Below, in pieces: positions 12,423 through 64,000 of a DNA stretch of 64,000 nt. The notes under the pieces are model-generated. The model ran no database searches, was not told where the DNA came from, and was given only the letters and a program-made list of their open reading frames with translations. Source of the stretch: an uncultured cyanobacterium (lineage in GTDB: Bacteria > Cyanobacteriota > Cyanobacteriia > Leptolyngbyales > Leptolyngbyaceae); the NCBI GenBank assembly GCA_963766075.1, contig CAVYAN010000048.1, positions 52,266 through 116,265 of the forward strand, written 5' to 3'. The position numbers were made by a program, and so were the translations under genes. Every line of letters starts with the position of its first letter. Positions within the stretch are counted from its first letter, which is position 1.

Positions 12423-12696
12423 AACAAAACCCTAGGCTATTTCCCTATAGCCTAGGGTTTTGTTGTTTCTAGGCGGCATAGCGCTTTGCTAATAGCGCTT
12501 TACAGGATACGTGTATCTATAGCCTAATAACAAAACCCTAGGCTATTTCCCTATAGCCTAGGGTTTTGTTGTTTCTAGGCGGCATAGCGCTTTGCTAATA
12601 GCGCTTTGCTAATAGCGCTTTACAGGATACGTGTATCTATAGCCTAATAACAAAACCCTAGGCTATTTCCCTATAGCCTAGGGTTTTGTTGTTTCT
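12423..12696 (+). repeat. Triplicated hairpin unit (periods 106 and 120 bp)
   Basis: AACAAAACCCTAGGCTAT-ttccct-ATAGCCTAGGGTTTTGTT at 12423, 12529 and 12649; the linkers contain AGCGCT and GATAC..GTATC mini-palindromes. Confidence 0.85.
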
Positions 12697-12934
12697 GGGT
12701 GCCCTAACACTGGAGAGGATCGACAGGATCGATCTGTCTGTACTCTGCAATCCATGCAACAAAGCGCGATGCGGTTACCCTACGGAATAGGGTAGTTTCG
12801 TCGTAGTTTTTGCCGTTGATCGTGACATACTGTAGTTAAAAAGGAGTAGCTATGTACTTGCGACCAGAGCCATTCCTCTCCGGCAGGCAAGCCGATCTAC
12901 CGTTGTAAAAAATGTAAAAAATGAGGAAGGGAAG

Positions 12935-17633: not shown

Positions 17634-17947
17634 TTACTGTCAAAGAGTCGGAGCAACAGGAAGAATTCCTGTGCGCTGTAGAGGATAGGTTTGAGAAGAT
17701 CCCTTTTCAGGTGTCTTACGCCAGATTCAGGCGGATGGTTGACTACACGAAAAGTAACCCAAAGTCCTTCCGTGTCATTCGTAACGCTTGGCGATACGAA
17801 TGTGCGAATGAAGCCAAGACTGTGCGGGACAGCCTTGAACGGCTTCTTGCCGTGATTGAATCTGAATTCAGTCATCCTGGCTTTAACTGGGAAATGGTTC
17901 TAAAAATCATCTCCCTAAAAATCCAGGGAGGGTCAGAATCATGCTGA
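17630..17947 (+). CDS. Hypothetical protein
   Basis: ATGA coupling. Confidence 0.6.
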   Translation: MITVKESEQQEEFLCAVEDRFEKIPFQVSYARFRRMVDYTKSNPKSFRVIRNAWRYECANEAKTVRDSLERLLAVIESEFSHPGFNWEMVLKIISLKIQGGSESC

Positions 17948-18243
17948 CCATAACCCGCTCAGGCGGGAGGATAGGCGATCGCAGCCAAAAGCTCTGCTGC
18001 GTCAAGGTCGATGCCGACAACACGGTTAATCCGGCAGTGTTCGCGGCGGAAGTGGCCAACGCTCAAGGGCGGCTCACTGGACCATTCCTGGTCGCCATCT
18101 CAGGGCATTGCCCCACTTGGGGTTACGCTCTCCTGGTTCATGCAGCCCATGCTAGTCAAGGCGTGGCGGTGTTTGATCCCAAGTGGGGATATGTCGTAGT
18201 TCAGTCCCACGTCCCTGGATTAACTGTGGGGTCAACTTTCTAA
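17941..18243 (+). CDS. csx3: Csx3/Crn3-like cyclic oligoadenylate ring nuclease, stand-alone
   Basis: 100 aa; VAISGHCPTWGYALLVHAAHASQGVAVFDPKWGYVVVQSH.PG..VG matches the Csx3 signature (SGRxPxWLY..L.H..H....VA.YDPRLG.VVV.SH). Confidence 0.8.
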   Translation: MLTITRSGGRIGDRSQKLCCVKVDADNTVNPAVFAAEVANAQGRLTGPFLVAISGHCPTWGYALLVHAAHASQGVAVFDPKWGYVVVQSHVPGLTVGSTF

Positions 18244-27901: not shown

Positions 27902-28218
27902 CTTTAGTTTGCCACAGCCATCCCCATCCAGTTCAGATCGGTGACAGGATCGAGGATGGTTTATTGATTTGCGACGGGCACCAAGTGCTCATGAGCCCAG
28001 AGCCAGGGCTCCCAGAAGCTTCTTTCGACGTTCTCTGGGAGGACGATGAAAAAGAGTGGTATTTTCATCTTTCTTACACATCGCCAGAATGGCTGAAGGT
28101 GCCCGAGGGCGTTGCAGTTGTTCCAATCTGGAAAACTCAGAAACAGTTGGACGATGAAAGAACTGAGGCAGAAGATTGCGACTGCTACAGGGATACAAAA
28201 TCTGTTAGATGCTACTAA
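27898..28218 (+). CDS. Hypothetical protein
   Basis: ATGA coupling. Confidence 0.6.
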   Translation: MTLVCHSHPHPVQIGDRIEDGLLICDGHQVLMSPEPGLPEASFDVLWEDDEKEWYFHLSYTSPEWLKVPEGVAVVPIWKTQKQLDDERTEAEDCDCYRDTKSVRCY

Positions 28219-28236
28219 GGGGCACATAGGAGATTT

Positions 28237-28600
28237 ATGATTAGCGAAGCCTTTCAATACAAAAGCCTTGGCCATGTCAAAGTGGTCGAAAATGTAAAAA
28301 ATGACCGCACGGGAAATCCGATCGTCCTAGTTTTTGTGGGACAAACAGAGGATTGTTTTTATCAGGAAGTTGTTGAGGGGGGGTGTTATCCGAGCGGGCG
28401 TAGAGGTTTACGGAACCTTTTACGCTTCCTACGAGCCGAGCGAGGGGAGGCGAAGCTGGGTTACGGAACATCGCTCCATGGACAGCGCCCTAGCCGCCCT
28501 GGAGGAAACCCTGGAGCTTATAAGGAGGCTAAAGAGCAGTAGCCCCTTTGGCCCGCCGCCTCTTCGGCCATGGCTCGCGCCTCAGTCTTTGGGAATTTAA
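28237..28600 (+). pseudogene. Frameshifted paralogue of 33700-34035 (G7 tract at 28377-28383)
   Basis: The N-half (ORF 28237) and C-half (ORF 28334 frame) align end to end with 33700-34035; removing one G restores the frame. Confidence 0.75.
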
Positions 28601-28617
28601 GTTTACAAAAAGGAGGA

Positions 28618-28860
28618 ATGATGAACTTTAGTGTTTTGTCAAGCGGTTTGGCCGCTCCCGTCAGGAAAAGTCTACCAGGAAGTCCAGAGGACGCCAAAGA
28701 ACGGCGATTGATGGCCATCCTGGCGATGCAAAAAACTGAGCGTAGGAAGCTGGGTTGTAGTTGTCCCCTTTTCCTGGCCAACGGTCGCTCCGAGAACCCC
28801 AGGATCGACATTGGCGATGATCGAGACTGCGAGTACTGCCACCCTATCAGGAGTTTCTGA
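28618..28860 (+). CDS. Small Cys-rich protein translationally coupled to cas8e
   Basis: AGGAGG RBS; CSC...CEYCH; TGATG overlap with the cas8e start. Confidence 0.6.
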   Translation: MMNFSVLSSGLAAPVRKSLPGSPEDAKERRLMAILAMQKTERRKLGCSCPLFLANGRSENPRIDIGDDRDCEYCHPIRSF

Positions 28861-29678
28861 TGAATTTACTAACCGATCCGTGGGTTCCGGTCCTGGAGCA
28901 AAACAATCGCCCTGGCGAGGCATCCTTGCTCCGACTGCTGACCGATGGCAGCATTTTGGATATAACTGGCCAGCCGATGACCAGGCTGGCCGTCCTGCGG
29001 CTGCTCATGGCCATGAAAGCATGGCGCGATCGCGGTGGTGATGACTTCCAGGAACAATCCTTCAGCCTGAGTACGTTCTTGCAAACTGCGTTGCCCGCAG
29101 AATGCAAGGGGCTACGCCCTGAGCTGATTATCCAAATGTCCGATAAAAACGGCGTGGCATGGTCCCCGACGCCGCGCAAGCCATCACCACCGGAGATTTT
29201 CGCTCAGGCTGTCGTCACGGCGTATTTCTGCGATCGCGGCGGACTGAAGGCCCGAGTCCCCGGCTTATCCATTTCGGGCCAAACACCGTTTCATGTAGGC
29301 ACCCAAGTCCGGATGGTGTCTGGGGAAACGGTCTTGGAGCGCCTCGACAATAATCCTGTTGATTGGGAGCCCGACGACTACCAGCCCCCGTGGGTGGGCG
29401 GCGTGAAATTTCCGGAAGGTAGCAAGCCGCGCCATGACTTAGAGCTGCTGCTCTGGCCATGGCGCAGAGTCTGCATTACGGACAATGGCGTTGTTGTCGC
29501 ACCAGGGGCGGTCATGTCCACCGAGGTGAAAGACCCTTGGGTGCTGGGGAAAGCGCTGGTGCGTCATTATCGTGACAAACCTGAGGAGGGATTTGAAATC
29601 ACAAATCTGGCCTTGCAGCAGGCGTCACCCTTGGCCTGCTGGATCTCTCGGCCCTGCAAACAAAGTGTCGTATTCTGA
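28860..29678 (+). CDS. cas8e: Truncated Cas8e (Cse1/CasA)-like subunit, 272 aa
   Basis: MNLLTDPWVPV N-terminus, RLAVLRLL, GETVLERL..N, PPW, L.WPWRRV and DPW motifs; about half the canonical length. Confidence 0.75.
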   Translation: MNLLTDPWVPVLEQNNRPGEASLLRLLTDGSILDITGQPMTRLAVLRLLMAMKAWRDRGGDDFQEQSFSLSTFLQTALPAECKGLRPELIIQMSDKNGVAWSPTPRKPSPPEIFAQAVVTAYFCDRGGLKARVPGLSISGQTPFHVGTQVRMVSGETVLERLDNNPVDWEPDDYQPPWVGGVKFPEGSKPRHDLELLLWPWRRVCITDNGVVVAPGAVMSTEVKDPWVLGKALVRHYRDKPEEGFEITNLALQQASPLACWISRPCKQSVVF

Positions 29679-29683
29679 AAACT

Positions 29684-30232
29684 ATGGAAATGGAAGCAGT
29701 TTTAACCAAAATCAGAGGAAGCCTAGGGCACAAAGCCGTCATGGCCGGTTTTGAACATTCCGAGTCCCCCACAGCCAGGGCGGATTGGAACATTTTGTTC
29801 CGGCATGACGGCGAAAATACGTTGATTCAGTCAACCGTTGCGCCGACTTACCGCCGTCCATTTGAACAAAAACCCCTCCCTCTCGATCCGATCGCGGGCG
29901 AGTCCTACTTTTTCAGGGTGGCTATTAACGCTATCTCCATTGAAAAGACCGAATCAGGACGGTCCAAGGAGGTGCGTTGTGACCCTGAAATTTGGCTGCA
30001 ATTCCAGCAGGCAAAGCGCGGCTTTGCTATAGAAAAACTCCTTTCTGCGGTTAGCGCTCCGATTGTCGAAACATCTGGAGGCCGCAGGTTTTTTGTCAAC
30101 CGTTTTCACATAGAAGGCGTTTTGATTGCTGAAAATGCCCAACTTTTGGGCAAAACGCTTCTCGAAGGACTGGGAAAATCCAGATCCTACGGATGCGGAT
30201 TGCTCTCCATCTTGCCCATTAATCAACCATAG
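29684..30232 (+). CDS. cas6e: Cas6e (Cse3/CasE) crRNA-processing endoribonuclease
   Basis: ILFR...LIQSTVAP, Y.FRV.IN, WL..Q...GF, EGVL, and the G-loop GLGKSRSYGCGLLSI. Confidence 0.9.
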   Translation: MEMEAVLTKIRGSLGHKAVMAGFEHSESPTARADWNILFRHDGENTLIQSTVAPTYRRPFEQKPLPLDPIAGESYFFRVAINAISIEKTESGRSKEVRCDPEIWLQFQQAKRGFAIEKLLSAVSAPIVETSGGRRFFVNRFHIEGVLIAENAQLLGKTLLEGLGKSRSYGCGLLSILPINQP

Positions 30233-30240
30233 GAGTTTTC

Positions 30241-31545
30241 ATGTTCGTTGCCGTTCACGCAATTCAATCCCTGCCTCCCTCCAACCCCAACCGAGGGAAA
30301 GATGGCGAGCCCAAGCACTCCCCGCTCGGTGGGGTGGTCAGAGCGTGCCTGTCCTCCCAGTCCCAGAAACATGCGGCGCGGCAGTGGTACCACGCTGCTT
30401 TTGAATCGGATCCTTCTGGATTTGCCTACCGCTCCAGAGAGTGGCATGGGCAGCTTGCAGCCCAACTTGGATGGGCTCCCGATCACCAAAAAGACAACAT
30501 AGCGAGGTTAATCCTCGCGCTGCTCAACAGCAGTCCGGCGAATTTATTCGCTAATGCGATCTCCATGCAGAACCTAATTTTTATGGGCCTTGCAGAAATG
30601 CAGGCGATCGCCATTATGTCCCAGTCATGCGCAGAAGCGCTCGGATTTCTGTCCGACGATTTTGAGGCTTACAAAGTCTGGGCTGCAAACCAAAAAACGA
30701 TCGTAGAAGAGCCTGAAGAACCCGTAGAAGAGCCTGAAGAACCCGTAGAAGATGCAGGGAAAAAGAAGGCTAAATCTAAAAAAGCGGAATTTGGGCGGCA
30801 CCCCACTCCTGCCAAGTTGAGGCCCATAATTCAATGCATCAGCAGTGCCATGGGCAGCACTGTCCCTGGCGATATAGCCCTGTTTGGGCGGATGATGGCG
30901 TCCTCCGGATTTGGCAGCACGGACGGCACGGTAGAAGTCGCCGCCGCGATCGGGGTGGGAGCCCTTGGTCGGTCTAGGTCGGATAAGGGGTGGGTGCCCG
31001 GTCAAGTTGACTTCTTCTCAGCAGCAGACGATCTCGCTCTTCCCAACACGTCTGGGGCGGCGATGCTGGGAGAAACACTGTTCGCAGCCCCAACGCTGTA
31101 CCGATACGCCAACGTGAACTGCCATGAGGCTGCAAACCTCATAGGTAATCGAGAGGCTGCTGCCGAAGCGATCAGGCGGTTCGTCAACGGGTTTCTGCGC
31201 GCCCTCCCCACGGGGCACTCTCGGCAGTTTGCCCATGGGGTTCTGCCGGAGTTTGTCCTGCTGGAAGTTTTGAAGACGGCCCCTTACGGCTACAGCCAAG
31301 CATTCCTATCACCTATCAATGGCCCTGACACTTCGGTGCCTACCGAGTTCGGAGGACTGTCGGTCAGCCAGCAGGCGGTGAACGCGCTCATGCGCCACAG
31401 GATGAACTCTATCGAGTTGTTTGGCGGGGCTCCTGAGAGCTTCGCGATAACGGCTCTATCAACCCATTGGGGGACGGAAGAGGTTCTACCCCTAGACAAA
31501 GCGATCGCCTCCGTCCTGGCTCACCCTGGCGTGCTGGAGAAATAA
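30241..31545 (+). CDS. cas7e: Cas7e (Cse4/CasC) backbone subunit
   Basis: VHAIQSLPPSNPNRGKDGEPK....GG..RA..SSQS.K.A.R; DIALFGRMMA; DFFSAADDL; GAAMLGET.F....YRYANVN; LPTG....FA. Confidence 0.93.
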   Translation: MFVAVHAIQSLPPSNPNRGKDGEPKHSPLGGVVRACLSSQSQKHAARQWYHAAFESDPSGFAYRSREWHGQLAAQLGWAPDHQKDNIARLILALLNSSPANLFANAISMQNLIFMGLAEMQAIAIMSQSCAEALGFLSDDFEAYKVWAANQKTIVEEPEEPVEEPEEPVEDAGKKKAKSKKAEFGRHPTPAKLRPIIQCISSAMGSTVPGDIALFGRMMASSGFGSTDGTVEVAAAIGVGALGRSRSDKGWVPGQVDFFSAADDLALPNTSGAAMLGETLFAAPTLYRYANVNCHEAANLIGNREAAAEAIRRFVNGFLRALPTGHSRQFAHGVLPEFVLLEVLKTAPYGYSQAFLSPINGPDTSVPTEFGGLSVSQQAVNALMRHRMNSIELFGGAPESFAITALSTHWGTEEVLPLDKAIASVLAHPGVLEK

Positions 31546-31546
31546 T

Positions 31547-31993
31547 ATGCCCTTCACAATGACCCTTTCCGGGCCAATGGGAGGCTTCGGAGATACACCC
31601 AGATTGGTGCATCGCTTTGTTCAGGAGGCTCCCCCGCGATCGGCCATCATCGGCCTAATTGCCAACGCCTATGGCCTGAGCCGCGACGATGATTTTGGGT
31701 TCCTAGATTCCCTGAGATTCAGAATCATTGAACAAAGCTCGGGTGAGGCTGTAGTTGATTTTCAGACGGTGCGGAATGCCGTCACCGTTGATGGTAAGCC
31801 GGGGCGGAATGCCATCACGTATCGGCACTATTTGCCAGACTACAAGCTGGTGTTGGAAGTTGATGGCCCGGAGGAATTGCTCAAGCAAGTGTTCCTCAAT
31901 CTGAAATATCCCCACCGACCGCTTTACATTGGACGGCGCTGTAATGTTTTAGATCGGCCTGTCGTTGCTGGGGATTTTCCAGGGATAGGATAA
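31547..31993 (+). CDS. cas5e: Short Cas5e (CasD), 148 aa
   Basis: LSGPMGGFG.....R.....PPRSAIIGLIANAYG..R; DFQTV; T.RHYL.D; L..P...LYIGRR. Confidence 0.88.
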   Translation: MPFTMTLSGPMGGFGDTPRLVHRFVQEAPPRSAIIGLIANAYGLSRDDDFGFLDSLRFRIIEQSSGEAVVDFQTVRNAVTVDGKPGRNAITYRHYLPDYKLVLEVDGPEELLKQVFLNLKYPHRPLYIGRRCNVLDRPVVAGDFPGIG

Positions 31994-31995
31994 GT

Positions 31996-33193
31996 TCTCC
32001 AAAAGTTGGAGGTTGGTCTGCATAGCATTGACTCAGCACGCTGACTCAGCACGCTCCACTCCAATCTTTGGAGGTCGATCTGGACAAGAGAGGCACTAAA
32101 TCAAGCTATTGGGAAGGCGGCAGATTACTGCACTCCAATCTTTGGAGGTCGATCTGCGCTACAGCTTATCCCTCGGCCACGCCGCCCATCTGCCCCGCCC
32201 TGCGGGGGTTGCTCTAGAATCTTGTTTCAAAATGTTTTGTGCCCCATCTACTGGGGGTTAATCGTACAAAAATTTTGATTAGATTGGGCACCGTTGCCCT
32301 ATCTAGCGGGGGTTACTCGTAAAAGCTCTACGAGGTTCAAGATGCTTTGTGCCCGCTTTGCGGGGTTCATCATGCAAAGATCGCGACCTGCCCTGAACTG
32401 TGCATTGCCCCAGCCTGGGGGGTTTTTAGGGCAACGATTTGATCGCCCCACCCCGTGGGGGTTTGTCGCAAGTAAACCGTGGACCGTGCGTTGCCCCAAA
32501 CTGTGGGGGTTTGTCGCAAGCTTACCTTAGCGCTCAGGGTTGCCCAATACCCCACCTTGTGGGGGTCCGTCCATCAGCGCGATGGAAGCCTGGGAGCGGT
32601 AAATAATTGCCCCGCACAGTGGGGGTTTATTGTACAAAGTCTCAGAGGTTCAAAATGTTTTACGCCCGCTCTGCGGGGTTTTTCAAGTAGTTCATGCGTG
32701 CTTTCACCCCACACCATGGGGGTTTATCGATGAACTCTAGTCATGCGTGCTTCCGCCCCATCTAATGGGGGTTTCTCACCGAGAACTTGGGAGAAGCCAT
32801 ATTTCCCCACCCGTGGGGGTTTATCCACCAGTCCGAACTTTTCATCCGCGATCGCCACTCCACGCCGTGGAGGTTTGTCACTCTCTGCGCTTACTGCGAT
32901 AGTGAACATTTCCCCACCTGCGGGGGTCGATCTTCTCCAGAGGGCAGCATCGCAAATAGGCTGGATTCACACCCTCTCTGAGGGGTTTTTCGTTCAACTT
33001 AACCAGCTCGAAATGGTATTGCTTGCTCCATGGCGTGGAGGTTTGTCAACAAAGTTGAGTGCGTCCCCACTTGTGGGGGTTCTTCTCTGGCCTTGGCCGT
33101 CTTTTTTCAGCCCCATGTTATGGGGGTTCTTCTCTGGTCAATAATCGACCCTCTCCACGCCGATCTGCACAGCCCCACCTATGGGGGTTAATC
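31996..33193 (+). CRISPR. Degenerate I-E-like CRISPR array, block 1 (23 repeats)
   Basis: Consensus RCCCCAC-N3-GTGGGG-GTTTRTC. Starts: 31996,32058,32132,32192,32241,32296,32351,32407,32445,32493,32549,32609,32664,32706,32755,32804,32857,32911,32971,33025,33064,33110,33172. Begins 3 nt after the cas5e stop. Confidence 0.85.
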
Positions 33194-33210
33194 CTTATCA
33201 GGAGAACTAC

Positions 33211-33483
33211 ATGGATAAAAAGCTGCTTATTTGTGTTTGTGAAAAATTCATCGACCTTGACACGGTTAGAGCACTGTTACGGGGTGATAGCGTTCGAGAT
33301 TCTTCCCTTGATCTCCTGTTTTTGCAGGAAGATTGCTTAGGCGGTAAATTTCGATTGCGAGGCGCAACAGAAGATTCAAAAACTTTTGTAGACTGCGAGT
33401 TCTCGTATCTTGAAACGAATGAAGAAGTTTATCTTGAAATAACCGCACTGAGAACCAGTCCGATCCTCGACTCCCTGCCCTGA
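33211..33483 (+). CDS. Hypothetical protein embedded between array repeats
   Basis: AGGAG RBS right after the repeat at 33172; the stop is followed by a near-identical repeat. Confidence 0.7.
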   Translation: MDKKLLICVCEKFIDLDTVRALLRGDSVRDSSLDLLFLQEDCLGGKFRLRGATEDSKTFVDCEFSYLETNEEVYLEITALRTSPILDSLP

Positions 33484-33490
33484 GAGCACA

Positions 33491-33682
33491 GCCCCACCTG
33501 TGGGGGTTTATCCATGATAGGGCTGCACATTCCTGCGGATACTTGCCCGCAATCGCGGGGTCAGTCCCGTTCCACAGGGAGGCACAATTTTTGTAGCCTG
33601 GTCACCCCGCCTTGCGGGGGTCGATCGCTTCCAGGCTAGTAGATACACTCTCTCTGAGTCTCCACTCCGTGGAGGTTTTATT
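33491..33682 (+). CRISPR. Degenerate array, block 2 (4 repeats)
   Basis: Repeats at 33491, 33545, 33604 and 33659. Confidence 0.8.
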
Positions 33683-33699
33683 CAAAACATAGGAGTCTT

Positions 33700-34035
33700 A
33701 TGCTTTACCAAGATTACGACTACGAAGCTGTTGGCGGCGTAAAAATCGCCAAAAACGCAGCAAACATACAAACGGGAAACAAAATAATGCTGGCCTTCCT
33801 AGGGCCAGATGAAGATTGCTACTACATTGAAGCCCTCCCCGATGAGGCTGGGATAATCCGCGCTGGCCGGGAAGCGGACGGCGATTACTACGCAAGCTTC
33901 GAGCCAGTGGTTGGGGAGAGCTGCTGTGTGAGGGAGCACTCCTGCATTGATGATGCCCTATCTGAACTGGAGGCTATTTTGCTCACCTTGGATCCGCCGC
34001 CGCAATGGCGATCGCCGCAAACGCTGGCGCTGTAA
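33700..34035 (+). CDS. Hypothetical protein inside the array; intact paralogue of 28237-28600
   Basis: CATAGGAG RBS directly after the repeat at 33659. Confidence 0.75.
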   Translation: MLYQDYDYEAVGGVKIAKNAANIQTGNKIMLAFLGPDEDCYYIEALPDEAGIIRAGREADGDYYASFEPVVGESCCVREHSCIDDALSELEAILLTLDPPPQWRSPQTLAL

Positions 34036-34057
34036 CTCGTGAAAATCCTAATGACCT

Positions 34058-34465
34058 ATGAAAATCCTGAACCTAGAAACGGGCGCAACAGCAACTATTG
34101 ACACCGAAAACATCCCTGAAGAAAATCGGTTAATTCCCGAGAATCCGTTAGACCTTTTGGCTTTGACTGCTTTTTGCATTCAGAGCAACTGTAATGGGGT
34201 GGTTTGGACGACGAACAGGCAAGAAGATGGCAGCATAAGCGTCATGCTTGACACCTTGGTTTTTGGATATGACGGCTTCGCCAAAACTACCGTAGGAATT
34301 CAACCTGCGGTCTTCGACCCGATGACTTTTATAGATCAGGAATCAGTTCATCTCACGTTCTGGGTTTCGTTAACCCACTGCAAACTTAAGCCAGAGGCGT
34401 TCTGGCTCACAAGCCTGCGCGGATTTCAGCAGACTAACATTGTGGGTTATCCCATCGTTTTTTAG
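34058..34465 (+). CDS. Hypothetical protein inside the array
   Basis: 135-aa ORF ending 11 nt before block 3. Confidence 0.65.
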   Translation: MKILNLETGATATIDTENIPEENRLIPENPLDLLALTAFCIQSNCNGVVWTTNRQEDGSISVMLDTLVFGYDGFAKTTVGIQPAVFDPMTFIDQESVHLTFWVSLTHCKLKPEAFWLTSLRGFQQTNIVGYPIVF

Positions 34466-34476
34466 CCCCATTTCCC

Positions 34477-34726
34477 GCCCCACTCAGTGGGGGTTTATCT
34501 CTAATGTTGACTGGAAATAAAAAGTGCTTCGCCCCACTCAGTGGGGGTTTGTCGGTAATCATCAGCGCCATAGTTCTTGCGCATCAAGCTCCACATCGTG
34601 GAGGTGCCTCGGCAAAAGCGCTAGCATGTCGGGCTGCCAGGTTGAATGCTCCACTCTGTGGAGGTGCTTCGGCAAAAGCACTGGTCGGTTGGCGATAGCT
34701 AGCGCTCCACGCCGTGGAGGTCTTTC
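34477..34726 (+). CRISPR. Degenerate array, block 3 (5 repeats)
   Basis: Repeats at 34477, 34531, 34588, 34648 and 34704 (CCCCAC/GTGGGG and CTCCAC/GTGGAG variants). Confidence 0.8.
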
Positions 34727-34772
34727 GACAACAGAAATTCAGACCGATACTTTATTCTTGGAGACTGAAATT

Positions 34773-35321
34773 ATGAAGCAACTAACATCCGTAACGCTCC
34801 CTTACGAGCAGTTTGCAGAGATCGCAAATTATGAAGTGGAGGGCTGCGTCGAGGCTGCCATTAGTCTGGGCTGTGCCGACTTCGCCAAGCGCGACATCCC
34901 AGACGGATCGGGCGCGTTCCCTGTCCACCTGAGCCTGAAAACACCAGAGGGTCGTTTTTTGGGATCGGGTGCGTATTGCGGATTCGTCCACGGCTTCGAT
35001 CAGGACATTTTAGAACGGCTTTGGCAGGCTGCTGGGGTCACCCTGGATGAGGATACTCTGTACCAGTCCTGCTTTGATGTCAACATAGGCACTCATGAAG
35101 ATAATCACGGCGCTGTCTGCGAGGACTGCCTGAGAGCGGGAGGAGGGGTCTATATCGAAGGATCGGAAGATACTCCGTGGGAGTCACTGAGCGAGCTTGA
35201 TCGCCTCGGGCTTACTTTTCGCCGTTTGCTGCCAGAGAGCGATCGCGCAGTCTGTTGGTCATGTAGGCAAATGATTGACGAGTCAATCGCGTCTGCTGCG
35301 GAAAATTGTGCCGCTGAGTGA
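34773..35321 (+). CDS. Hypothetical protein with two CxxC pairs, inside the array
   Basis: GGAG RBS before ATG at 34773; VCEDC...VCWSC. Confidence 0.7.
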   Translation: MKQLTSVTLPYEQFAEIANYEVEGCVEAAISLGCADFAKRDIPDGSGAFPVHLSLKTPEGRFLGSGAYCGFVHGFDQDILERLWQAAGVTLDEDTLYQSCFDVNIGTHEDNHGAVCEDCLRAGGGVYIEGSEDTPWESLSELDRLGLTFRRLLPESDRAVCWSCRQMIDESIASAAENCAAE

Positions 35322-35414
35322 GCCTTGACCCCAACCCAGTCGTGACAGTTCTGGAGTTAAAGAATCCCGGCAACGGGACTGGCAAAATTCATCAAAGCCA
35401 GTAAGGAGAACAAC

Positions 35415-35699
35415 GTGAACATCAAGTCTTGCGCGATCGCCATCAATAGCGGAGAGGACGCCCACGCATCCATTCTGGCCATGTGTCAGCAGCTAGACAT
35501 AGCCAATCTGCCTGAGCCTGAAGACAAAATGCGCCAACTGGCGTACACGGAAAGCGGACTAAGGGTCGCTTTGATGTTGAATCACCAATGGATTCAGGCT
35601 CGGGCGGAAAAACTGATTCAGCCTTGCTTCAATCGGATTGCTACTGAGGAGTTTGGCGTGGGTATGCGTCAAACTCGCGCAATGGTCGCACATGATTAA
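35415..35699 (+). CDS. Hypothetical protein
   Basis: AAGGAG RBS, GTG start. Confidence 0.6.
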   Translation: MNIKSCAIAINSGEDAHASILAMCQQLDIANLPEPEDKMRQLAYTESGLRVALMLNHQWIQARAEKLIQPCFNRIATEEFGVGMRQTRAMVAHD

Positions 35700-35722
35700 C
35701 CAGTGAACATAGGAGTTGAAAA

Positions 35723-36787
35723 GTGAAAATCAATCGCCCAGTTGGAGTACTACTGCCAATTCATGAAACGTATTACGGGGATATAAACCCTGGCGATCTA
35801 AACAGTTTCTTGGCTTGTGCCGGAGAAGCGTTGCGAACGTTCGGGTTCTCTCGGATCGAAACCTTAAACCCTGACACAGACCGAGAGCGGGAGCTGTGGG
35901 GCGTTGGCGAAATCTTGGTCCAGTCGGATGAGATTACGAGCTGGGATGACGGCAAAGATGTGGGGATAACGGTTGATTGGCTTGACCTAATCGACGCCGA
36001 TTCAGACGAAATATTGAAGGTTCTAGAATCCACATGGATGAAGGAACCGGCGATCGTGGCGATGAACTATCTCGAAGAAGATGGCTACAAAGACCGTGGA
36101 AACTCCGAGTTTGGAGTAGTTCGCTCCTACAGGCATCACAGTCAGGAATTTGTCCCAGGAATTCCCCTTTCTAGGTTTTTGAGCGAGGGATGGGTAAAAG
36201 AGCAGCCTAGCAGCAAGGCAAGCATCAGTGTAGCCCCTGGCGGGGGGATTCAAGTCCCGCGAGAACTTGACTTTGTTCGATGCTGGGAGCTTTTTGAACG
36301 CCAGTCGCTAGACAACCCTAGGTGTTTTGAGTATCGGCAGGTATGCCTCACTGAGGATTCTCGCTACAGAAAATGGGTAGAGCAGGGCTATCCTGCCTTT
36401 TCGGTAAACTTTTCCGACTCTCAGCGCCGTTTTGTCAACGAAGCAAAACTATCGGAAAGAGCGGCATTTGTTCACTCGATAGTAAGCCGCCCATCCGAAT
36501 TCCAAAGGCTGGTATCGGAGTTTGGGCATACCCTTGCTGTCGGCCACTCAGTCTGGATCTGCACGGATGCAGAAGGCCGCGAGGGATTTTATATGTGGCG
36601 AACCGAAGGGGGCTGGCACGGGGCTCAATTCGGAGTGCAAGAGCTGAAAAGGCTTGGAGTGAGCGATCGCTTTGAAAAGCTGAGGGAAACTTTAAGTATC
36701 GAAACGAAAGGATTTCCTGTAGCCGGAGAGGGCGTTGGCAGATACGCCGATGTGGAATTCCTCAAATCTACGGGATGGTTTGAGTAG
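35723..36787 (+). CDS. Hypothetical protein inside the array
   Basis: CATAGGAG RBS; 354 aa; stop 12 nt before block 4. Confidence 0.75.
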   Translation: MKINRPVGVLLPIHETYYGDINPGDLNSFLACAGEALRTFGFSRIETLNPDTDRERELWGVGEILVQSDEITSWDDGKDVGITVDWLDLIDADSDEILKVLESTWMKEPAIVAMNYLEEDGYKDRGNSEFGVVRSYRHHSQEFVPGIPLSRFLSEGWVKEQPSSKASISVAPGGGIQVPRELDFVRCWELFERQSLDNPRCFEYRQVCLTEDSRYRKWVEQGYPAFSVNFSDSQRRFVNEAKLSERAAFVHSIVSRPSEFQRLVSEFGHTLAVGHSVWICTDAEGREGFYMWRTEGGWHGAQFGVQELKRLGVSDRFEKLRETLSIETKGFPVAGEGVGRYADVEFLKSTGWFE

Positions 36788-36799
36788 TTGATCCTCAGC

Positions 36800-37176
36800 A
36801 CCCCACCTTGTGGGGGTTTGTCAAAGTTTATAAACGGGCTGCGGTATTTATTGGCGACTTAAAGCCTTTGCCCCACGCCGTGGGGGTTTATCAACGGTCT
36901 GCGGCAGCCTTGTGACGTAAAGCCTTCGCCCTACACTGTGTAGGGGTTTATCTTCGATCCAACTCTATTGGCTTAACGGCTCTCTTTGCCCCACGGTGTG
37001 GGGGTTTATCTTTGCTCCAACTCTACCAGCTTAACGGCTCTCTTTGCCCCACGGTGTGGGGGTTTATCAAACGGTTCTATAGCCAAATCAACCCTCACCC
37101 CGCTCAGTGGGGGTCTATCTTTACGGCAGCAAACCCCCACCGGGCTTACATCACCCCACACTGTGGGGGTGCGATC
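36800..37176 (+). CRISPR. Degenerate array, block 4 (7 repeats)
   Basis: Repeats at 36800, 36870, 36928, 36988, 37046, 37097 and 37153. Confidence 0.85.
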
Positions 37177-37250
37177 GCATCGCGCTTGAAATGATTTACA
37201 CCAAACATAGGAGGCTTATACCCGCCTTTCAGCATTCAAATAAATGTCCC

Positions 37251-37569
37251 GCCGCGATCGCCACTGGTCGCGGCTTTTTTTATGGAGAAACCCCAAAATG
37301 CAAACCAAAATCACCAAATCTAAAGCCGCCGAAATCGCCCAGAACCTGATAGAGGAAGGCGAGGAAAACACAGGAGTCTGTCTAGCCTGCGGAGAAGTCC
37401 ATGAAGGGATTGAGCCCGATGCCCGCGAGTATAAATGTGAAGCCTGCGGTCAACATAAAGTTTACGGATCAGAAGAAATTCTTCTAATGTTCGGACCTGC
37501 CAACTTCTAAAAACCACTGAATGCAGACTGCCGCGATCGCCACTGATCGCGGCTTTTTTATGGAGAAAA
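37251..37569 (+). repeat. Duplicated HIP1-containing hairpin + T-tract + RBS element (37251-37290 and 37530-37569)
   Basis: GCCGCGATCGCCACTG(G/A)TCGCGGCTTTTTT(T)ATGGAGAAA, present twice. Confidence 0.75.
37298..37510 (+). CDS. Small Zn-ribbon protein
   Basis: GVCLACGE...IEPDA..YKCEACG...VYG.EE.L. Confidence 0.75.
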   Translation: MQTKITKSKAAEIAQNLIEEGEENTGVCLACGEVHEGIEPDAREYKCEACGQHKVYGSEEILLMFGPANF

Positions 37570-37570
37570 C

Positions 37571-37819
37571 ATGCACCCTGAATCAATCGAGATTGGAGAG
37601 GAATACAGCCCTGAAGCCTGGAGTGGTGGCGACTTCTATTACAAAATCACCCGAACCCATTATGGGTACTGGGCGATGCTGTACACCCGCCTAGCGGAGA
37701 CACGAAAAGAAAACTGGCGTTTCCGGATTATCAATCCGCAGCCCTATCAAATACTAGGGCTTTTGGCAGTACGAATTGATCGATTTGTAGCAGAAATGAG
37801 GCAAAGCAATGCTAATTGA
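37571..37819 (+). CDS. Hypothetical protein
   Basis: GGAG RBS. Confidence 0.6.
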   Translation: MHPESIEIGEEYSPEAWSGGDFYYKITRTHYGYWAMLYTRLAETRKENWRFRIINPQPYQILGLLAVRIDRFVAEMRQSNAN

Positions 37820-38183
37820 TGAGGTCTTGGACATTGAATGGTTGGACAAAGTGGGTGACCCGCTCACAGTTGCCACAACCATTTGTGGAATTGTGAACGG
37901 TTCGATTTGTGCGAAAGAAATCCTAGAAAAGTCAGAGGGTGTATTCCCAAACCCAATCGACAAGCTATCTATACCTGAACAGAAGTTGTTTGCTATCAAT
38001 GATGTCATCCAAGGTTTTGGGACGGAAGCCGCTTGGCTGGACGACAGCTCAGACTATCCCAGCGCCGAGTATATCGACGTTGGAGATCCCTATGTAGCAA
38101 CCATTCTGTATGACTACCAGACTGACACCTTTCAGGTTACCTGCTTAGCAGATTGGCTTAACCCACAGGAGAAAGCAGCATGA
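37809..38183 (+). CDS. Hypothetical protein
   Basis: Y.DVGDPY.ATILYD motif; operon packing. Confidence 0.65.
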   Translation: MLIDEVLDIEWLDKVGDPLTVATTICGIVNGSICAKEILEKSEGVFPNPIDKLSIPEQKLFAINDVIQGFGTEAAWLDDSSDYPSAEYIDVGDPYVATILYDYQTDTFQVTCLADWLNPQEKAA

Positions 38184-41100
38184 TTAGCGTTGCCAGAGTC
38201 CGCGAGATTGAACAAGTACTAGAAGCAAAAGCGGATGAGTACAAAGGAATAAGTAGGATTACATTCCCAGAGATCTTAAAGTTTGTGCTCCTTAAAGAGG
38301 CAAATATTCTCGATCAGATCGATTTCGATATTGTTGAGGAATTCGTACTTGAAACATTCAACGACTTTCCTGAAGAGTTCATCGCCAAACTCAAGGAGAA
38401 ATACCCCGAAATCCTCGGACTGGAAAAGATTCTGGAAGAAGCCGATCCCAAAGACGTTCGCGCAGAGATCGAAGCCAATTCAACCCTAAACGACGAACTG
38501 GGATTAGTCCCTCAGATGGCTCGAATGCCAGAGGAAGAACTGTTCAAGCTGCTGATCGATTACGGCTTGCTTCCCAGCTTCAACCTCTACGACCTCCAAT
38601 CCAATCGCACCGACAATAAAAACCTTGAAACCCCCACAGAGCAATGCTTAACACCGCCCGCGACCACTGCAAAAACCGTCGCCGGCGACGGTGCAAAACC
38701 GCCAAACCCTCATCCAGAAAGCACCCTGGAAACAGTGCCCATGACAAACGAAGTCGTCAATTACCGTTACCGCGTAGAGGCTGCCCTAACAGCGATCTCT
38801 GCTGTCGTCAGAAACCAGGGCCAAAACTACACAGAAGCGATCGCCCAGTTTGGTGGATGGGGCTCGCTGAGCCGATTGTTCACCGAGCGGCCTGACATGC
38901 CCGAATGGGAGAAACGGGCTTGCGGCACCCTGAAGGGACTCCTAAGCCCACAGGAATACGCTTCTGCACGGAATCTGACCCTTAACAGCTTCTACACCAG
39001 TCCCGAGGTTATCAGGGCGATCTGGGCGTTCGTTTTGTCCACTGGATGGGAAGGTGGCGAAGTGCTTGATCCAGGATGCGGCACCAGGCGGTTTTGGCAG
39101 TACGCCCCAGAAGCGGCACGCCAGATCGCCACTGGCTACACAGGCGTTGAAAAGGACTACACAACCCACCTTATGGGGCTCGCCTTAACCCCTCTGGACG
39201 ACCAAGGAAAGAGTCTCAATGATTTTTCCGAGCATGGCGACTTCCTCACATGGGCCACCGATCTCCAGTATCACCTGGTGATCGGCAACTTCCCTTTTGA
39301 AGATGGCGTAACGGCAGGCGTCCCGGACCTTGGCTTTGGCCTCAAGGTGGCTTTGCATGGCCGCTTCCTGCTGCGTGCACTTAGTCATCTGCGCCCTGGC
39401 GGCTTGCTGGCCGTCATCACCAGTCCGGGCCTGATGGACGGCAGTTCAAAAGCCTACCAAGGGCTCCGAGCCCGTGTAGAAGCTATGGCGGTGTTCCTGG
39501 GGGCTGTGCGGCTCCCAGAACAGACCCACGCCAGTTCTGGTACGGAGTGCACCAGCGACCTAATCATCTTGCGCAAGCGATCGCCCGCTGACAACGCGGA
39601 TAACGAATTCACCGAGGCTAGTGTGCCGTGGCAAAAAGTTTACACATCCCCCAAACTTAATGCCTACTGGAGCGCAAACCCCACCCACCACCTTGGTCAA
39701 TTTGTGCCCAACCGCACCCGTGGCGGGCAGGGGGCGGGCGCAAGATGGACCGGCAGCTATGCCGAACTGATTTCCGCACTCAACCAAGCACTTAAATCAA
39801 TCCAGGAGAACTATATGTCCAGAATCAGAAAGACCCGTGACGACAGCCCAAAGACAGGCTGGCAGCACGTTGAGGTGACCTACAATGCCGAGCAGGATGG
39901 GGTTGAAATTCGCTTCTCAGATGCGATTCCCAAGATGATCAGCGGATTGCTGGGCTGGGCCGGATTCAAATTCCATCGCGACAAGTTCTGGTGGGTGAAG
40001 GTGTCACCAGAGGTTCAGGGTTGGTTGCAGAACTCATTTGAGGAAATCCTCCTGAACGCTGGGTACGAAGATGTCCCAGAAGACGAGCGATCGCTGACCG
40101 CCAAGGGGTTTGCCTCCTGCGAGGAATATTTTGTAATTCCCTCACTTCAGCCGCCAGTCCAAGCGGCTGACCTCCCTCCCTCCGCAGAAGAGCCGCAGAA
40201 AGCTGGCGGAATAGAACCTTGGGCCTTCAGCTCAGAGGGGGCGAAGCTACTGCGACAAACCTTTGAGAAACGCGAGTGTGTCGAGCCAGTAGTAGAAATC
40301 CCAGCACACCCTACCCCTGGATCGACCCTGCGTCAGGTTGAGCCGTATTTCGTCAGATCGCAGTTTTTTGGCGCTTACAAGCGCTCAAAGATTGAAGAGT
40401 ATGAGCGGGATCTGGTAGTAGCACTGAACAACGATCCGGCATCCATAAGGCACGAGTTGCTCAGAATCACCTACGAACTTTTGCTGCCGACTGAAGAAGA
40501 ATATCTAGCGTTCACTCAGGCGCTAACGCAAACCCGCGACTGGATGTTTCACATGGGTGGATCATCCTCCCTGCACGAGACTGATTATCCAAACTTGAGC
40601 CCTGAAGAGGAACAGGAATGGCGGAAATACCGATTTGGCGATAACTGCCTTATGGTCCGCGCACCGCAAGACATTCCGCGCCACATGGATTTTGTGGTCA
40701 ACCCCGAGGGGAACACTTACGCCAAATACGTGTACACCAGTCCCATTCCGGTCGAAGCTCCTACAAAGGAAACCTACCAATCGATTCTCCATGGCCCGAC
40801 CGAGGAAGAATGGATAGCGAAACAAACCGCTCAGGCTCAAGCCCAGGAGCCCGAGCCTGAAACACCGCCCGTCACTGGATTCGACCTTGACGACTTTTTC
40901 TCAGACATCATGGGCCTGGTCGCTGACGCAACTCCCCCTGAGCCCTGGATGAAAGATGCCGTGCAAGCACAGCTTGAGGAATTGGCGAAGCGCCCGCGCA
41001 TTCCCTCGTTTCGAGCAACCCTGACAACAAAATGGATACCTTTGCTGAACTTCCTGAACCTGGGAAGTTTGTTGGGAATGCTCACGATGGGACAAAAGCT

Positions 41101-41254
41101 TGCTGAACTAAAGCGACAATCCCCCGATATTCCTGGCCTCGATCCCTTGTCCAAAGAGATGCTTGAGATGCTAGCGCGGCTCAACATCTTCCCCGAACAG
41201 GGAGGGGCGATCTCAAAACCCGCAGGACAGGGAGGGGCGATCGCAAAAAAGTAA
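38180..41254 (+). CDS. Multidomain protein containing a DarB-type adenine methyltransferase domain
   Basis: FGGWG, L..LLSPQEYASAR..TLNSFYTSPEVI, VLDPGCGT, VIGNFPF, LRPGGLLA.ITS, FLGAVRLP, SDLIIL.KR. Confidence 0.8.
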   Translation: MISVARVREIEQVLEAKADEYKGISRITFPEILKFVLLKEANILDQIDFDIVEEFVLETFNDFPEEFIAKLKEKYPEILGLEKILEEADPKDVRAEIEANSTLNDELGLVPQMARMPEEELFKLLIDYGLLPSFNLYDLQSNRTDNKNLETPTEQCLTPPATTAKTVAGDGAKPPNPHPESTLETVPMTNEVVNYRYRVEAALTAISAVVRNQGQNYTEAIAQFGGWGSLSRLFTERPDMPEWEKRACGTLKGLLSPQEYASARNLTLNSFYTSPEVIRAIWAFVLSTGWEGGEVLDPGCGTRRFWQYAPEAARQIATGYTGVEKDYTTHLMGLALTPLDDQGKSLNDFSEHGDFLTWATDLQYHLVIGNFPFEDGVTAGVPDLGFGLKVALHGRFLLRALSHLRPGGLLAVITSPGLMDGSSKAYQGLRARVEAMAVFLGAVRLPEQTHASSGTECTSDLIILRKRSPADNADNEFTEASVPWQKVYTSPKLNAYWSANPTHHLGQFVPNRTRGGQGAGARWTGSYAELISALNQALKSIQENYMSRIRKTRDDSPKTGWQHVEVTYNAEQDGVEIRFSDAIPKMISGLLGWAGFKFHRDKFWWVKVSPEVQGWLQNSFEEILLNAGYEDVPEDERSLTAKGFASCEEYFVIPSLQPPVQAADLPPSAEEPQKAGGIEPWAFSSEGAKLLRQTFEKRECVEPVVEIPAHPTPGSTLRQVEPYFVRSQFFGAYKRSKIEEYERDLVVALNNDPASIRHELLRITYELLLPTEEEYLAFTQALTQTRDWMFHMGGSSSLHETDYPNLSPEEEQEWRKYRFGDNCLMVRAPQDIPRHMDFVVNPEGNTYAKYVYTSPIPVEAPTKETYQSILHGPTEEEWIAKQTAQAQAQEPEPETPPVTGFDLDDFFSDIMGLVADATPPEPWMKDAVQAQLEELAKRPRIPSFRATLTTKWIPLLNFLNLGSLLGMLTMGQKLAELKRQSPDIPGLDPLSKEMLEMLARLNIFPEQGGAISKPAGQGGAIAKK

Positions 41255-41445: not shown

Positions 41446-42078
41446 ATGGAGTTGGTAGACACAAAATCCTACCCTGGATGCTTAGCCGTCCATGAGGGCA
41501 GGCTCGGCCTATCGTTCTATGGGTTGACCATGCCCATTGAGCTGCGGATCGGAGAGAAAACAATCACTTGCGATCGCCGCACCTTCCAGCCGCTAATCGC
41601 CTCTCCGGAGCGGATTGCCGCAACGGAGAGGCTCCTCATCATCTGGGGGCGCTGGCAACAGGTGATTCAACACGATTCAGCAAATCAGGTTGAGTCGGTC
41701 GGGCTTCGCGGCGCTTTGAACAGAGCCTATGACGACTTTGTTCAGGAGTATGGCCCTCTGGTGGAAAATCAGGCGCTACTGCGGTTTCAAAAAGTGCAGG
41801 ATCCACGGCTCGGCCTGCTTCTGGCTCTAGAGACAAAGGATGGTGAAAAAGCTGAGATTTTTTACAAGCGCGTTCACCATCCGCCGCCACGGCTCGGCGA
41901 ACAAATTTACTTCGATGCCGACATTCGCGATCGCTTATCTCAGGCATTTCCTAGGGTTTTAAGTGAGCGTGGTTCAATCGAAATCGATGAGATTGCCGCC
42001 GCGTGTGGGATTGACGCCGAAACCGCAGAGGACGAACTGGTTCAAATGGGCCTAGTCGTGCGGGAACCGCTTGTTTGA
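41446..42078 (+). CDS. Middle segment of a DarB-like methylase/helicase (frame open from 41167)
   Basis: LRGALNRAYDDFVQEYGPL...LLLALE....KAEIF.KR...L.ERG.I.I..IA...G. Confidence 0.7.
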   Translation: MELVDTKSYPGCLAVHEGRLGLSFYGLTMPIELRIGEKTITCDRRTFQPLIASPERIAATERLLIIWGRWQQVIQHDSANQVESVGLRGALNRAYDDFVQEYGPLVENQALLRFQKVQDPRLGLLLALETKDGEKAEIFYKRVHHPPPRLGEQIYFDADIRDRLSQAFPRVLSERGSIEIDEIAAACGIDAETAEDELVQMGLVVREPLV

Positions 42079-63994: not shown

Positions 63995-64000
63995 ATGGTT

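Follow-up and report, generated by a model that had tools for sequence, protein, structure and literature searches.

The window analysed here is a stretch of 64,000 nucleotides (nt) of cyanobacterial DNA, corresponding to positions 52266-116265 of contig C48 in a metagenome-assembled genome (MAG) of 126 contigs that is 85% complete. The window contains a reduced CRISPR effector operon of subtype I-E, which consists of four adjacent cas open reading frames (ORFs) on the + strand (28860-31993), tightly packed, with all frames intact and in the order cas8-cas6-cas7-cas5. The operon is followed by hairpin units whose stem and handle start are those of canonical cyanobacterial I-E repeats. The genes are listed below with their lengths in amino acids (aa) and the expectation values (E) of their Pfam matches.

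28618..28860, + strand: orf80, an 80-aa Cys-rich orphan ORF whose ATG is preceded by an AAGGAGG ribosome-binding site
28860..29678, + strand: cas8e-short (272 aa), Cse1 N-terminal domain only, Pfam Cse1 E 1.9e-12
29684..30232, + strand: cas6e (182 aa), presumed endoribonuclease of the CRISPR RNA (crRNA) precursor, PF08798 E 6e-19
30241..31545, + strand: cas7e-long (434 aa), backbone subunit, PF09344 E 1.8e-54
31547..31993, + strand: cas5e-short (148 aa), PF09704 E 1e-20, profile positions 6-155 of 217

The TGA of orf80 overlaps the ATG of cas8, an arrangement of translational coupling, and position 28618, given earlier as the start of the system, is the orf80 ATG. No Pfam or PHROG match and no homologue among 5.8 billion clusters were found for orf80. 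The Cas7e, Cas5e and Cas6e families place the operon in subtype I-E, which is also the assignment of NCBIfam and PADLOC. Only Cas5e passes its NCBIfam cut-off (TIGR01868, 69.3 against 68.95 bits). The remaining three Cas proteins score below the cut-offs of TIGR01869, TIGR01907 and TIGR02547, and therefore represent a divergent lineage. The effector is compact, with 272 + 182 + 434 + 148 aa = 1,036 aa encoded by ~3.1 kb of DNA. A first-pass annotation, made by a model from the letters alone, had named the four genes and given the sizes of cas8e and cas5e; Pfam, NCBIfam, PADLOC and the ORF coordinates agree with it.

The Pfam Cse1 match in the short Cas8 covers residues 2-52 only, at profile positions 1-53 of 450, and a profile of 13 members of the short-Cas8 family aligns with residues 7-281 of T. 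thermophilus CasA. The AlphaFold2 model of the protein has a predicted local distance difference test score (pLDDT) of 86.9 and a predicted template-modelling score of 0.89, and its Foldseek matches at E <= 0.001 are exclusively Cse1 chains. VIA-align superposes the model on Cse1 with Z 21.9 and a root-mean-square deviation of 3.1 A over 266 residues. Residues 1-267 of the model correspond to residues 8-403 of T. fusca Cse1, 7-361 of T. thermophilus CasA, and 1-367 of the E. coli protein. Judged by this model, the short Cas8 is a trimmed Cse1 N-terminal domain from which the C-terminal four-helix bundle is absent, and not a full-length Cas8e/Cse1 comprising both parts.

Cas5e is also shortened. 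It matches residues 4-147 of the 254 residues of T. fusca Cas5e, so that ~100 C-terminal residues of the canonical protein are missing, and its relatives are likewise short at 144-155 aa. Cas7e is enlarged, since its residues 2-93 and 211-363 align with 3-93 and 166-308 of T. fusca Cse4, and ~45 extra residues lie between these conserved blocks (residues 94 to 210). In Cas6e, His16, the presumed catalytic histidine by comparison with I-E structures, and the GxGxxxxYGCGLL loop are invariant in nine of nine aligned Cas6e proteins, including four from canonical cyanobacterial loci.

Hairpin units and embedded reading frames

The first hairpin unit begins 3 nt past the cas5e stop codon, and no leader precedes it. 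A unit comprises a G+C-rich stem of 5-7 bp (most commonly CCCCAC/GTGGGG), a loop of 3-6 nt, and a handle that starts with G-T-N-N-N-T-C. The units are distributed over three blocks, with six ORFs embedded within and between them.

31996..33683, + strand: hairpin block A, 27 units, interrupted by a 90-aa acidic ORF between units 23 and 24
33211-33483, + strand: acidic ORF of 90 aa inside block A
33700-34035, + strand: acidic ORF of 111 aa, isoelectric point (pI) 4.1, between blocks A and B
34058-34465, + strand: acidic ORF of 135 aa, pI 4.5, between blocks A and B
34478..34727, + strand: hairpin block B, 5 units, with a compensated CTCCAC/GTGGAG stem in three units
34773-35321, + strand: ORF of about 182 aa between blocks B and C
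35415-35699, + strand: ORF of about 94 aa between blocks B and C
35723-36787, + strand: ORF of about 354 aa between blocks B and C
36801..37176, + strand: hairpin block C, 7 units with a spacing of 51-70 nt and a degenerate handle on the last unit
37251..37280, + strand: strong intrinsic-terminator-like hairpin of 10 bp followed by a T-run

The hairpin at 37251-37280 is likely the end of the cas-array transcript, and a 97% identical copy of it lies at 37530-37559. A strict scan of both strands of the window for GTNNNTC preceded by a stem of 5 bp or more gives 40 matches on the + strand and 8 on the - strand. The + strand matches comprise 34 array units (31996 to 37119), one doubtful match within an ORF, and five elsewhere (~59 kb). 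With five imperfect units the total is 39. A relaxed motif gives 130 matches in the 5.05 Mb assembly, 33 of them in the array, and the array is the only cluster of at least 3 units (C48 84277-89378, equal to 32012-37113 of the window). The first-pass annotation had described a leaderless array of about 39 hairpin repeats fused to cas5e. The count and the fusion stand, whereas the single contiguous array is replaced by three blocks of 27, 5 and 7 units separated by ORFs.

The gaps between hairpins range from 22 to 59 nt, with a median of 41 (35 gaps). After removal of an 8-nt handle and a 5' repeat remnant of ~5 nt, the guides would have lengths of about 9-46 nt, mostly 25-32. Mean column identity over the 39 units is 65%. 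Near-identical repeats, a regular period and unique spacers, as in a strictly defined CRISPR array, are not found in the window, where some spacers are paralogous. An Rfam scan returned no CRISPR-DR match and no other credible family.

The hairpin is under selection. In the 39-unit alignment, 86.8% of the stem cells form a standard pair, compared with 37-66% in a slid control with partners shifted by 1-3 columns. Cells changed on both sides of the stem number 21, against 6.6 +/- 2.1 after shuffling, and none of 500 shuffles reaches 21. The double changes include C-G to U-A in nine units and A-U to C-G or G-C in five. The 21 cells are not independent events, as the units are related by duplication, and at least three different pairs have switched. 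Duplication is visible among neighbours: in families D3, D8, D9 and D13 of the repeat analysis, a 58-nt unit pair is 88% identical, a two-unit block of 79 nt is duplicated at 73% identity and several spacer ends are shared, and two neighbouring spacers in block C are 90% identical over 31 nt. Because adaptation genes are lacking (see below) and neighbouring units are paralogous, the array appears to grow by tandem duplication followed by drift, while selection retains the stem and the handle ends. Plain intrinsic terminators were considered as an identity for the hairpins and rejected, given that T-runs are missing, 39 units stand in tandem, and the same stem occurs in the true arrays of relatives.

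Five of the six embedded ORFs are acidic (pI 4.1-5.0) and one has a pI of 5.9. Ribosome-binding sites of the AGGAG type precede four of the six, including two of the three between blocks B and C. None of the six has a match in Pfam, NCBIfam, PHROGs or PADLOC, and a protein atlas search with the 354-aa ORF gave no usable match. They are candidate anti-defence or early genes. Near-identical hairpin units at 33173 and 33492 (family D6) bracket the 90-aa ORF, and units also sit before 33700 and after 34465 and 36787.

Related loci with a short Cas8

The short Cas8 belongs to a rare family. It has 12 relatives of 252-291 aa with 33-48% identity, of which 11 cover 96-99% of the query, and 27 columns are invariant in the alignment of the 13 proteins, among them those of FCDRGGLKAR-like and WPWRR motifs. 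The full-length coverage and these invariant columns argue against a truncated pseudogene, an idea that was rejected. A profile search of 1.84 billion representatives returned 17 short-Cas8 proteins at E <= 1e-30, and canonical Cse1 proteins of ~500 aa appear only from E 1e-9 upward. Two metagenomic proteins, P0140 (450 aa) and P0143 (445 aa), are fusions of a short Cas8 (~4-275) with a short Cas5 (~298-439), and they support the view that the two trimmed subunits are direct partners. Cas7e has 19 relative clusters at E <= 3.6e-55, 18 of them of 388-437 aa and one of 271 aa, with the nearest 85% identical. A gap separates this long clade from canonical Cas7e of 353-361 aa (E ~1e-33). A search of viral contigs with the window Cas7e found no close relative, and a profile search of genome contigs with Cas8 gave one spurious 22-residue match.

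Seven related loci (L035-L041) lie on three IMG/VR viral contigs of 72-78 kb and on four metagenome contigs, one of which, at 109 kb, bears ParA/ParB. In all seven, the short cas8 is oriented away from cas6e-cas7e-cas5e; L039 ends within cas7e, so no cas5e is visible there. The ratio of nonsynonymous to synonymous substitution rates (dN/dS) is 0.077-0.205 in 15 of 15 pairwise comparisons, which cover five genes in three viral relatives. As the first-pass annotation had supposed, the four-gene set is best described as streamlined and not decayed, because a family that combines a short Cas8 and a short Cas5 with a long Cas7 is conserved under purifying selection.

A fifth gene is present upstream of cas6e in all seven relatives. 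It encodes a protein of 214-242 aa with the conserved residues H..RD..E..D..ExK..Q. The D..ExK motif is kept in six of the seven members, and in L041 (9198-9914, - strand) E-x-K is replaced by E-V-V, which may reflect inactivation of the nuclease-like motif in a lineage with a frozen array. The SfsA restriction-endonuclease domain is weakly matched by three of the seven proteins (best E 3.5e-4). A search of PDB sequences with the fifth-protein profile found no match, hhalign against cyanobacterial Cse2 gave a probability of 0.2 with no similarity detected, and the fold model is poor (pLDDT 44.7). With a hidden Markov model (HMM) of the relatives' protein, the fifth gene is absent from the window and the whole assembly (best E 2.4).

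The arrays of the relatives are of different regularity. L038 has regular arrays on both sides of its cas genes, with a 29-nt repeat, a 56-66 nt period, the same stem and a GTGAGTCG-type handle, and these are CRISPR arrays in the strict sense. The regular L038 array with the same stem and handle pattern indicates that the window hairpins descend from a real CRISPR array. In L041 the period of 62-63 nt is kept, nearly all loops differ, and arrays lie between cas genes. In L035 the hairpin spacing is irregular like that of the window. Hairpin units are found amid the cas genes at 6824-7289 and 9098-9195 in L041 and at 8518-8673 in L035, that is, in the cas7e-cas5e interval and in the interval that separates the fifth gene from cas6e, and in these two loci the cas mRNA itself would be cut by Cas6e. 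Sister arrays (L035 and L037; L038 and L040) have cas-distal spacers in common and differ at their cas-proximal ends. As far as the sequences go, such sharing is what polarised acquisition leaves behind, although the stretches retrieved from the relatives showed neither cas1 nor cas2. Given that the stem and GT handle start recur in canonical cyanobacterial I-E repeats, it is plausible that the relatives use the I-E adaptation module of the host in trans.

In two cyanobacterial genomes (L029 and L030), a WYL/HTH regulator precedes a long Cas7e (428-430 aa), a Cas5 of 210 aa and a Cas6e of 198-200 aa, and no cse1 or cse2 was found within the ~1.5 kb upstream that was examined. They may represent another non-canonical I-E arrangement.

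Replicon, host and absent genes

The last 514 nt of C48 match its first 514 nt at 509 of 514 positions, the right end being 63487-64000 of the window. The contig is therefore circular or terminally redundant, at ~115.75 kb. C48 encodes terminase subunits, a portal, a head protease, a major head protein and a tail-fibre-like protein, together with ParA/ParB, an FtsK-like protein, Cro/CI-type regulators, DNA methylases and an integrase (a tyrosine integrase at 6380-7516 of the window). It is probably a complete phage-plasmid replicon, judging by its ends and gene content. The phage or phage-plasmid setting proposed earlier is in agreement with these head, packaging, tail-fibre, partition and integrase genes, and with the presence of relatives on IMG/VR contigs. 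The MAG has 53.5% G+C and 1.37 HIP1 sites per kb. The similar HIP1 density of C48 is consistent with a cyanobacterial host.

The first-pass annotation had reported no cas3, cas11, cas1 or cas2 in the 64 kb, and had named a cognate cas3 or cas11 elsewhere on the replicon as one of several threats to its reading; the absence now extends to the ~115.7 kb replicon and the 85%-complete MAG. In the whole host assembly, Cas1 (PF01867) and the Cas3 HD domain had no match, and the Cas3 core matched only two helicases, both off C48, which score 38.9 and 30.2 bits where the cut-off is 102.45. The I-E Cas2 (PF09707) and Cse2 (PF09485) also had no match in the assembly, with search controls that were positive in Thermus but not in E. 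coli. For Cse2, a full-sensitivity search of the six-frame translation of the assembly, with an HMM built from five cyanobacterial Cse2 proteins, reached no better than E 5.

Downstream of the array, the + strand carries a split DarB-like antirestriction set (38180-41254, 41446-42078 and 48111-51305). Its three ORFs match successive parts of the PHROG family 'DarB-like antirestriction', namely methylase, middle and SNF2 helicase, with E down to 1.2e-172, and the region just 3' of the array looks like a counter-defence island. Elsewhere in the window, a 100-aa ORF at 17941-18243 (+ strand) is a Csx3 homologue (Pfam Cas_csx3 E 1e-14). The supplement of PMC12669027 counts Csx3/Crn3 among the ring nucleases that degrade cA4, and the window ORF is a candidate phage-borne inhibitor of type III CRISPR signalling.

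Interpretation and comparison with known systems

The explanation we favour, at a little better than even confidence, is that the locus is a working, streamlined derivative of the cyanobacterial I-E effector on a temperate phage or phage-plasmid of ~115.7 kb, which would act as a nuclease-free RNA-guided binder. The operon, from orf80 and the cas8e N-terminal domain through cas6e and the long cas7e to the short cas5e, would be read through into the hairpin blocks as one long transcript, which Cas6e would cut at the 3' base of every hairpin. Each crRNA would carry a 5' handle of 7-8 nt (G-U-N-N-N-U-C) capped by Cas5e, a guide of variable length coated by Cas7e, and a 3' hairpin that remains on Cas6e. 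The Cas8 N-terminal domain would sit on Cas5e, read the protospacer-adjacent motif (PAM) and open matching DNA. Because the Cas8 C-terminal bundle, Cas11, Cas3 and any other recognisable nuclease are missing, the complex would bind without cutting, and would block transcription or replication of a competing element or another target. In E. coli, Cas11 is described in PMC12235044 as dispensable for gene silencing by the I-E Cascade. The guide set would be inherited, because Cas1-Cas2 is missing from the replicon and searches of the assembled host revealed no I-E system; it would be enlarged by tandem duplication and drift, with hairpin and handle ends kept by selection. Cas6e may also separate the mRNAs of the six embedded ORFs flanked by hairpins. 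The identities of the genes, the lost domains, conservation across the family, covariation in the hairpins, the setting on the replicon and the lack of the missing genes are observed, whereas transcription, processing, assembly of the complex, binding without cleavage and the biological target are inferred.

A bolder version of this explanation is tentative and clearly less probable. The locus would then be the first nuclease-free I-E lineage, a four-protein mini-Cascade on a phage-plasmid with hard-wired, inherited guides, which silences a rival element or host locus by binding and whose hairpins also punctuate an operon of acidic ORFs. Without an integrase that requires identical copies, the repeats could diversify, with compensatory selection on the hairpins (for Cas6e) and on the handle ends (for Cas5) as the only constraint, and one transcript would yield both guides and separate mRNAs of possibly anti-defence genes.

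Several observations weigh against a working binder. Several gaps leave a guide of just ~9-20 nt, which is too short for a normal Cascade, and the divergence of duplicated spacers to 73-90% identity argues against strong selection on guide sequence. Target searches were negative throughout. The 35 inter-hairpin segments have best exact matches of 16-17 nt in the host assembly, not beyond chance. The whole array region gives a best E of 1.7e-4 per genome in 400 other cyanobacterial genomes, where most matches concern its ORF parts, and nothing at E <= 0.001 in 89 other genomes of the host's family. Block A alone has no match in GenBank phages in distant mode at E <= 1, and positions 28000-38200 have none in PLSDB plasmids at megablast sensitivity. 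In addition, the MAG is 85% complete, and the Cse2 and Cas2 Pfam controls were positive only in Thermus. The dN/dS values describe three viral relatives and not the window branch. Finally, the sister loci keep the nuclease-like D..ExK gene, so the ancestral mode may have been cleavage, and the loss of this gene in the window could be recent. The arrays of relatives were also searched: the first array of L038 has one 31-nt match in phages (E 0.07) that overlaps the repeat and is taken as chance, the second has none, and 96 spacers from the window and six relatives (L039 yielded none), compared with each other's loci and the host assembly, show only sister-array sharing. Repression of host genes and sabotage of host CRISPR, both suggested in the first-pass annotation, find no support in these searches.

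Targets may still be destroyed by an unrecognised nuclease, such as an embedded ORF, another phage nuclease or the Cas3 of I-E-bearing hosts. We consider this unlikely, although it is the strongest of the competing explanations. The relatives pair the same four genes with a D..ExK protein, three of seven of which weakly match the SfsA domain; the transcription unit holds seven family-less ORFs (six at 33211 to 36787 and orf80); and I-E Cas7e occurs in 30 of 400 other sampled cyanobacterial genomes, whose repeats have the same stem. On the contrary, the fifth gene is absent from the whole assembly, which also has no Cas3 HD domain and no Cas3 core above threshold, and the embedded ORFs lack a nuclease signature. 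The C-terminal bundle of Cas8, which contributes to Cas3 docking in I-E systems, is missing as well. A recently disabled remnant of the five-gene variant, in which the nuclease-like gene was lost, the array is eroding and the cas genes are intact merely for want of time, is less probable still. The irregular spacing (gaps of 22-59 nt), the short guides, the diverged repeats, the ORFs inserted between blocks, the lost fifth gene and the failure to find targets would all suit it. However, the four cas frames are intact and tightly packed with family-invariant residues kept, and the compensatory stem changes lie far above the shuffled expectation and need continued selection while loops and spacers drifted. 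Moreover, the viral relative L035 is irregular in its hairpin spacing, yet its cas genes have dN/dS of 0.08-0.2.

The hairpins could instead serve mainly as Cas6e processing or stability sites that punctuate a long phage operon that combines cas genes with small, acidic, anti-defence-like ORFs, so that the sequences between them are not guides, but this seems improbable. It would account for the hairpins that directly flank ORFs, such as the near-identical units around the 90-aa ORF, for the units between the cas genes themselves in L041 and L035, and for the drift of guide sequences after duplication. Left unexplained is that the majority of units, namely those of blocks B and C and of block A as far as 33186, have nothing but ORF-free segments of 22-59 nt beside them. 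The handle ends (G, T ... T, C) are conserved, and in I-E systems these are read by Cas5/Cas7 and not by Cas6e. Cas7, Cas5 and Cas8 would be needless for processing, and yet they are conserved. Least probable, and very much so, is an anti-CRISPR decoy, in which the phage complex or its repeat-like RNAs would soak up or misdirect host I-E components. RNA anti-CRISPRs built from repeat mimics are known, the hairpin stem is identical to that of host-type cyanobacterial I-E repeats, and the neighbourhood is rich in counter-defence genes (the Csx3 homologue and the DarB-like antirestriction set). Phage mini-arrays that repress host cas genes are mentioned in the supplement of PMC12669027. Against a decoy, an I-E system is altogether missing from the assembled host, the complete conserved set of Cas5, Cas7, Cas8 and Cas6 would be needless, and no spacer matches cas genes in the 400 other sampled cyanobacteria.

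Compared with canonical I-E systems, the window has homologous Cas6e, Cas7e, Cas5e and a Cse1 N-terminal domain, and its hairpins share the CCCCAC/GTGGGG stem and GT handle start of canonical cyanobacterial I-E repeats. In contrast, it lacks the Cse1 C-terminal bundle, Cse2, Cas3, Cas1 and Cas2; its gene order is cas8-cas6-cas7-cas5; its Cas5e is ~100 C-terminal residues shorter and its Cas7e ~45 residues longer; and its array is leaderless and irregular with diversified repeats. The handle ends in CCG in three cyanobacterial I-E repeats, whereas that of the window ends in TC(N).

Another close published system is an I-E variant in which Cas11 is fused to a PD-(D/E)xK nuclease, with a D..ExK signature. 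PMC12669027 calls it I-E3 in its main text but I-E4 in its Supplementary Table 1, and it was first noted, as VRR-NUC-Cas11, in PMC10910872. L035-L041 resemble it in having a fifth protein with E..D..ExK..Q beside the same four genes. The likeness is drawn from the D..ExK signature as published and not from locus gene lengths or a short Cas8, and no Cas11 part was detected in the fifth protein. Unlike this variant, the window has no fifth gene, and L041 has V in place of the ExK lysine. The short-Cas8 family probably overlaps the published variant, so the proposal of an undescribed system holds only in part: the window copy, without the fifth gene, is further reduced, and it would be a derivative of the relatives' lineage and not a wholly undescribed system. 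Literature searches returned no described I-E system that has only the Cas8 N-terminal domain and is without Cas11 and Cas3; as Al-Shayeb et al. 2022 (Cell, virus-encoded systems) was outside their scope, a prior description is possible.

Class 1 effectors on mobile elements that lack Cas3 and acquisition genes are an already known kind. The inactivated type I variants listed in Supplementary Table 1 of the 2025 classification, PMC12669027, are I-B2, I-C2, I-D2 and I-F3, with no I-E among them, and the same source describes type IV-A and V-M as down-regulating plasmid genes in inter-plasmid competition. Like type IV-A/B and these four variants as listed there, the window system is a Cas3-less, acquisition-less effector of a mobile element that is expected to bind, and the proposed binding without cutting resembles type IV-A, V-M and the Cas3-less type I derivatives. 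It differs from the inactivated class 1 variants in that its effector is I-E-derived and its Cas8 is reduced to the N-terminal domain. The general Pfam/PHROG scans show no Tn7, Mu or DinG partners among the window ORFs, and no transposase or TniQ family of CRISPR-associated transposons among 75 (Pfam) or 72 (PHROGs) of them, with the tyrosine integrase the only such enzyme. Type IV-A does not apply, as the proteins score best as I-E, with secondary type IV Cas6 matches at 5.6e-09 and 2.6e-06; no DinG is present in the window, and the SNF2 helicase at 48111-51305 belongs to the DarB-like set. I-F2, which has no Cas8 and no Cas11, is alike in its reduced large and small subunits, and the compact phage I-F system of PMC10161043 is alike in its phage setting and reduced subunits, but both are of another subtype lineage. 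As far as these systems are described, they still recruit Cas3 or cleave, whereas the window system has no nuclease. An incomplete I-C DNA binder without Cas3, reported in PMC10910872, has a Cas8-Cas5 fusion, as do two members of the present family.

If the favoured explanation is true, I-E would become a further type I subtype that was converted by mobile elements into a nuclease-free binder guided by RNA. The array would show what happens once acquisition stops and processing stays selected, namely that loop, stem and spacing drift while pairing and handle ends persist, and such a drifting array is a natural read-out of the requirements of Cas6e and Cas5e. The effector of ~3.1 kb is a candidate small type I silencing scaffold, because it is compact and keeps the PAM-reading Cas8 domain. 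The path of reduction is testable, from a regular array through a frozen one to scattered hairpins, and from an intact D..ExK motif through a lost lysine to a lost gene.

Away from the operon, the window carries copies of a ~106-120 nt unit at 12443-12800, where Tandem Repeats Finder reports a 120-nt period with 1.8 copies and 100% matches (12478-12696). Every unit has a 14-nt sub-repeat and a CCCTA..TAGGG hairpin with a T-rich run behind it, and the units could be iterons or terminators.

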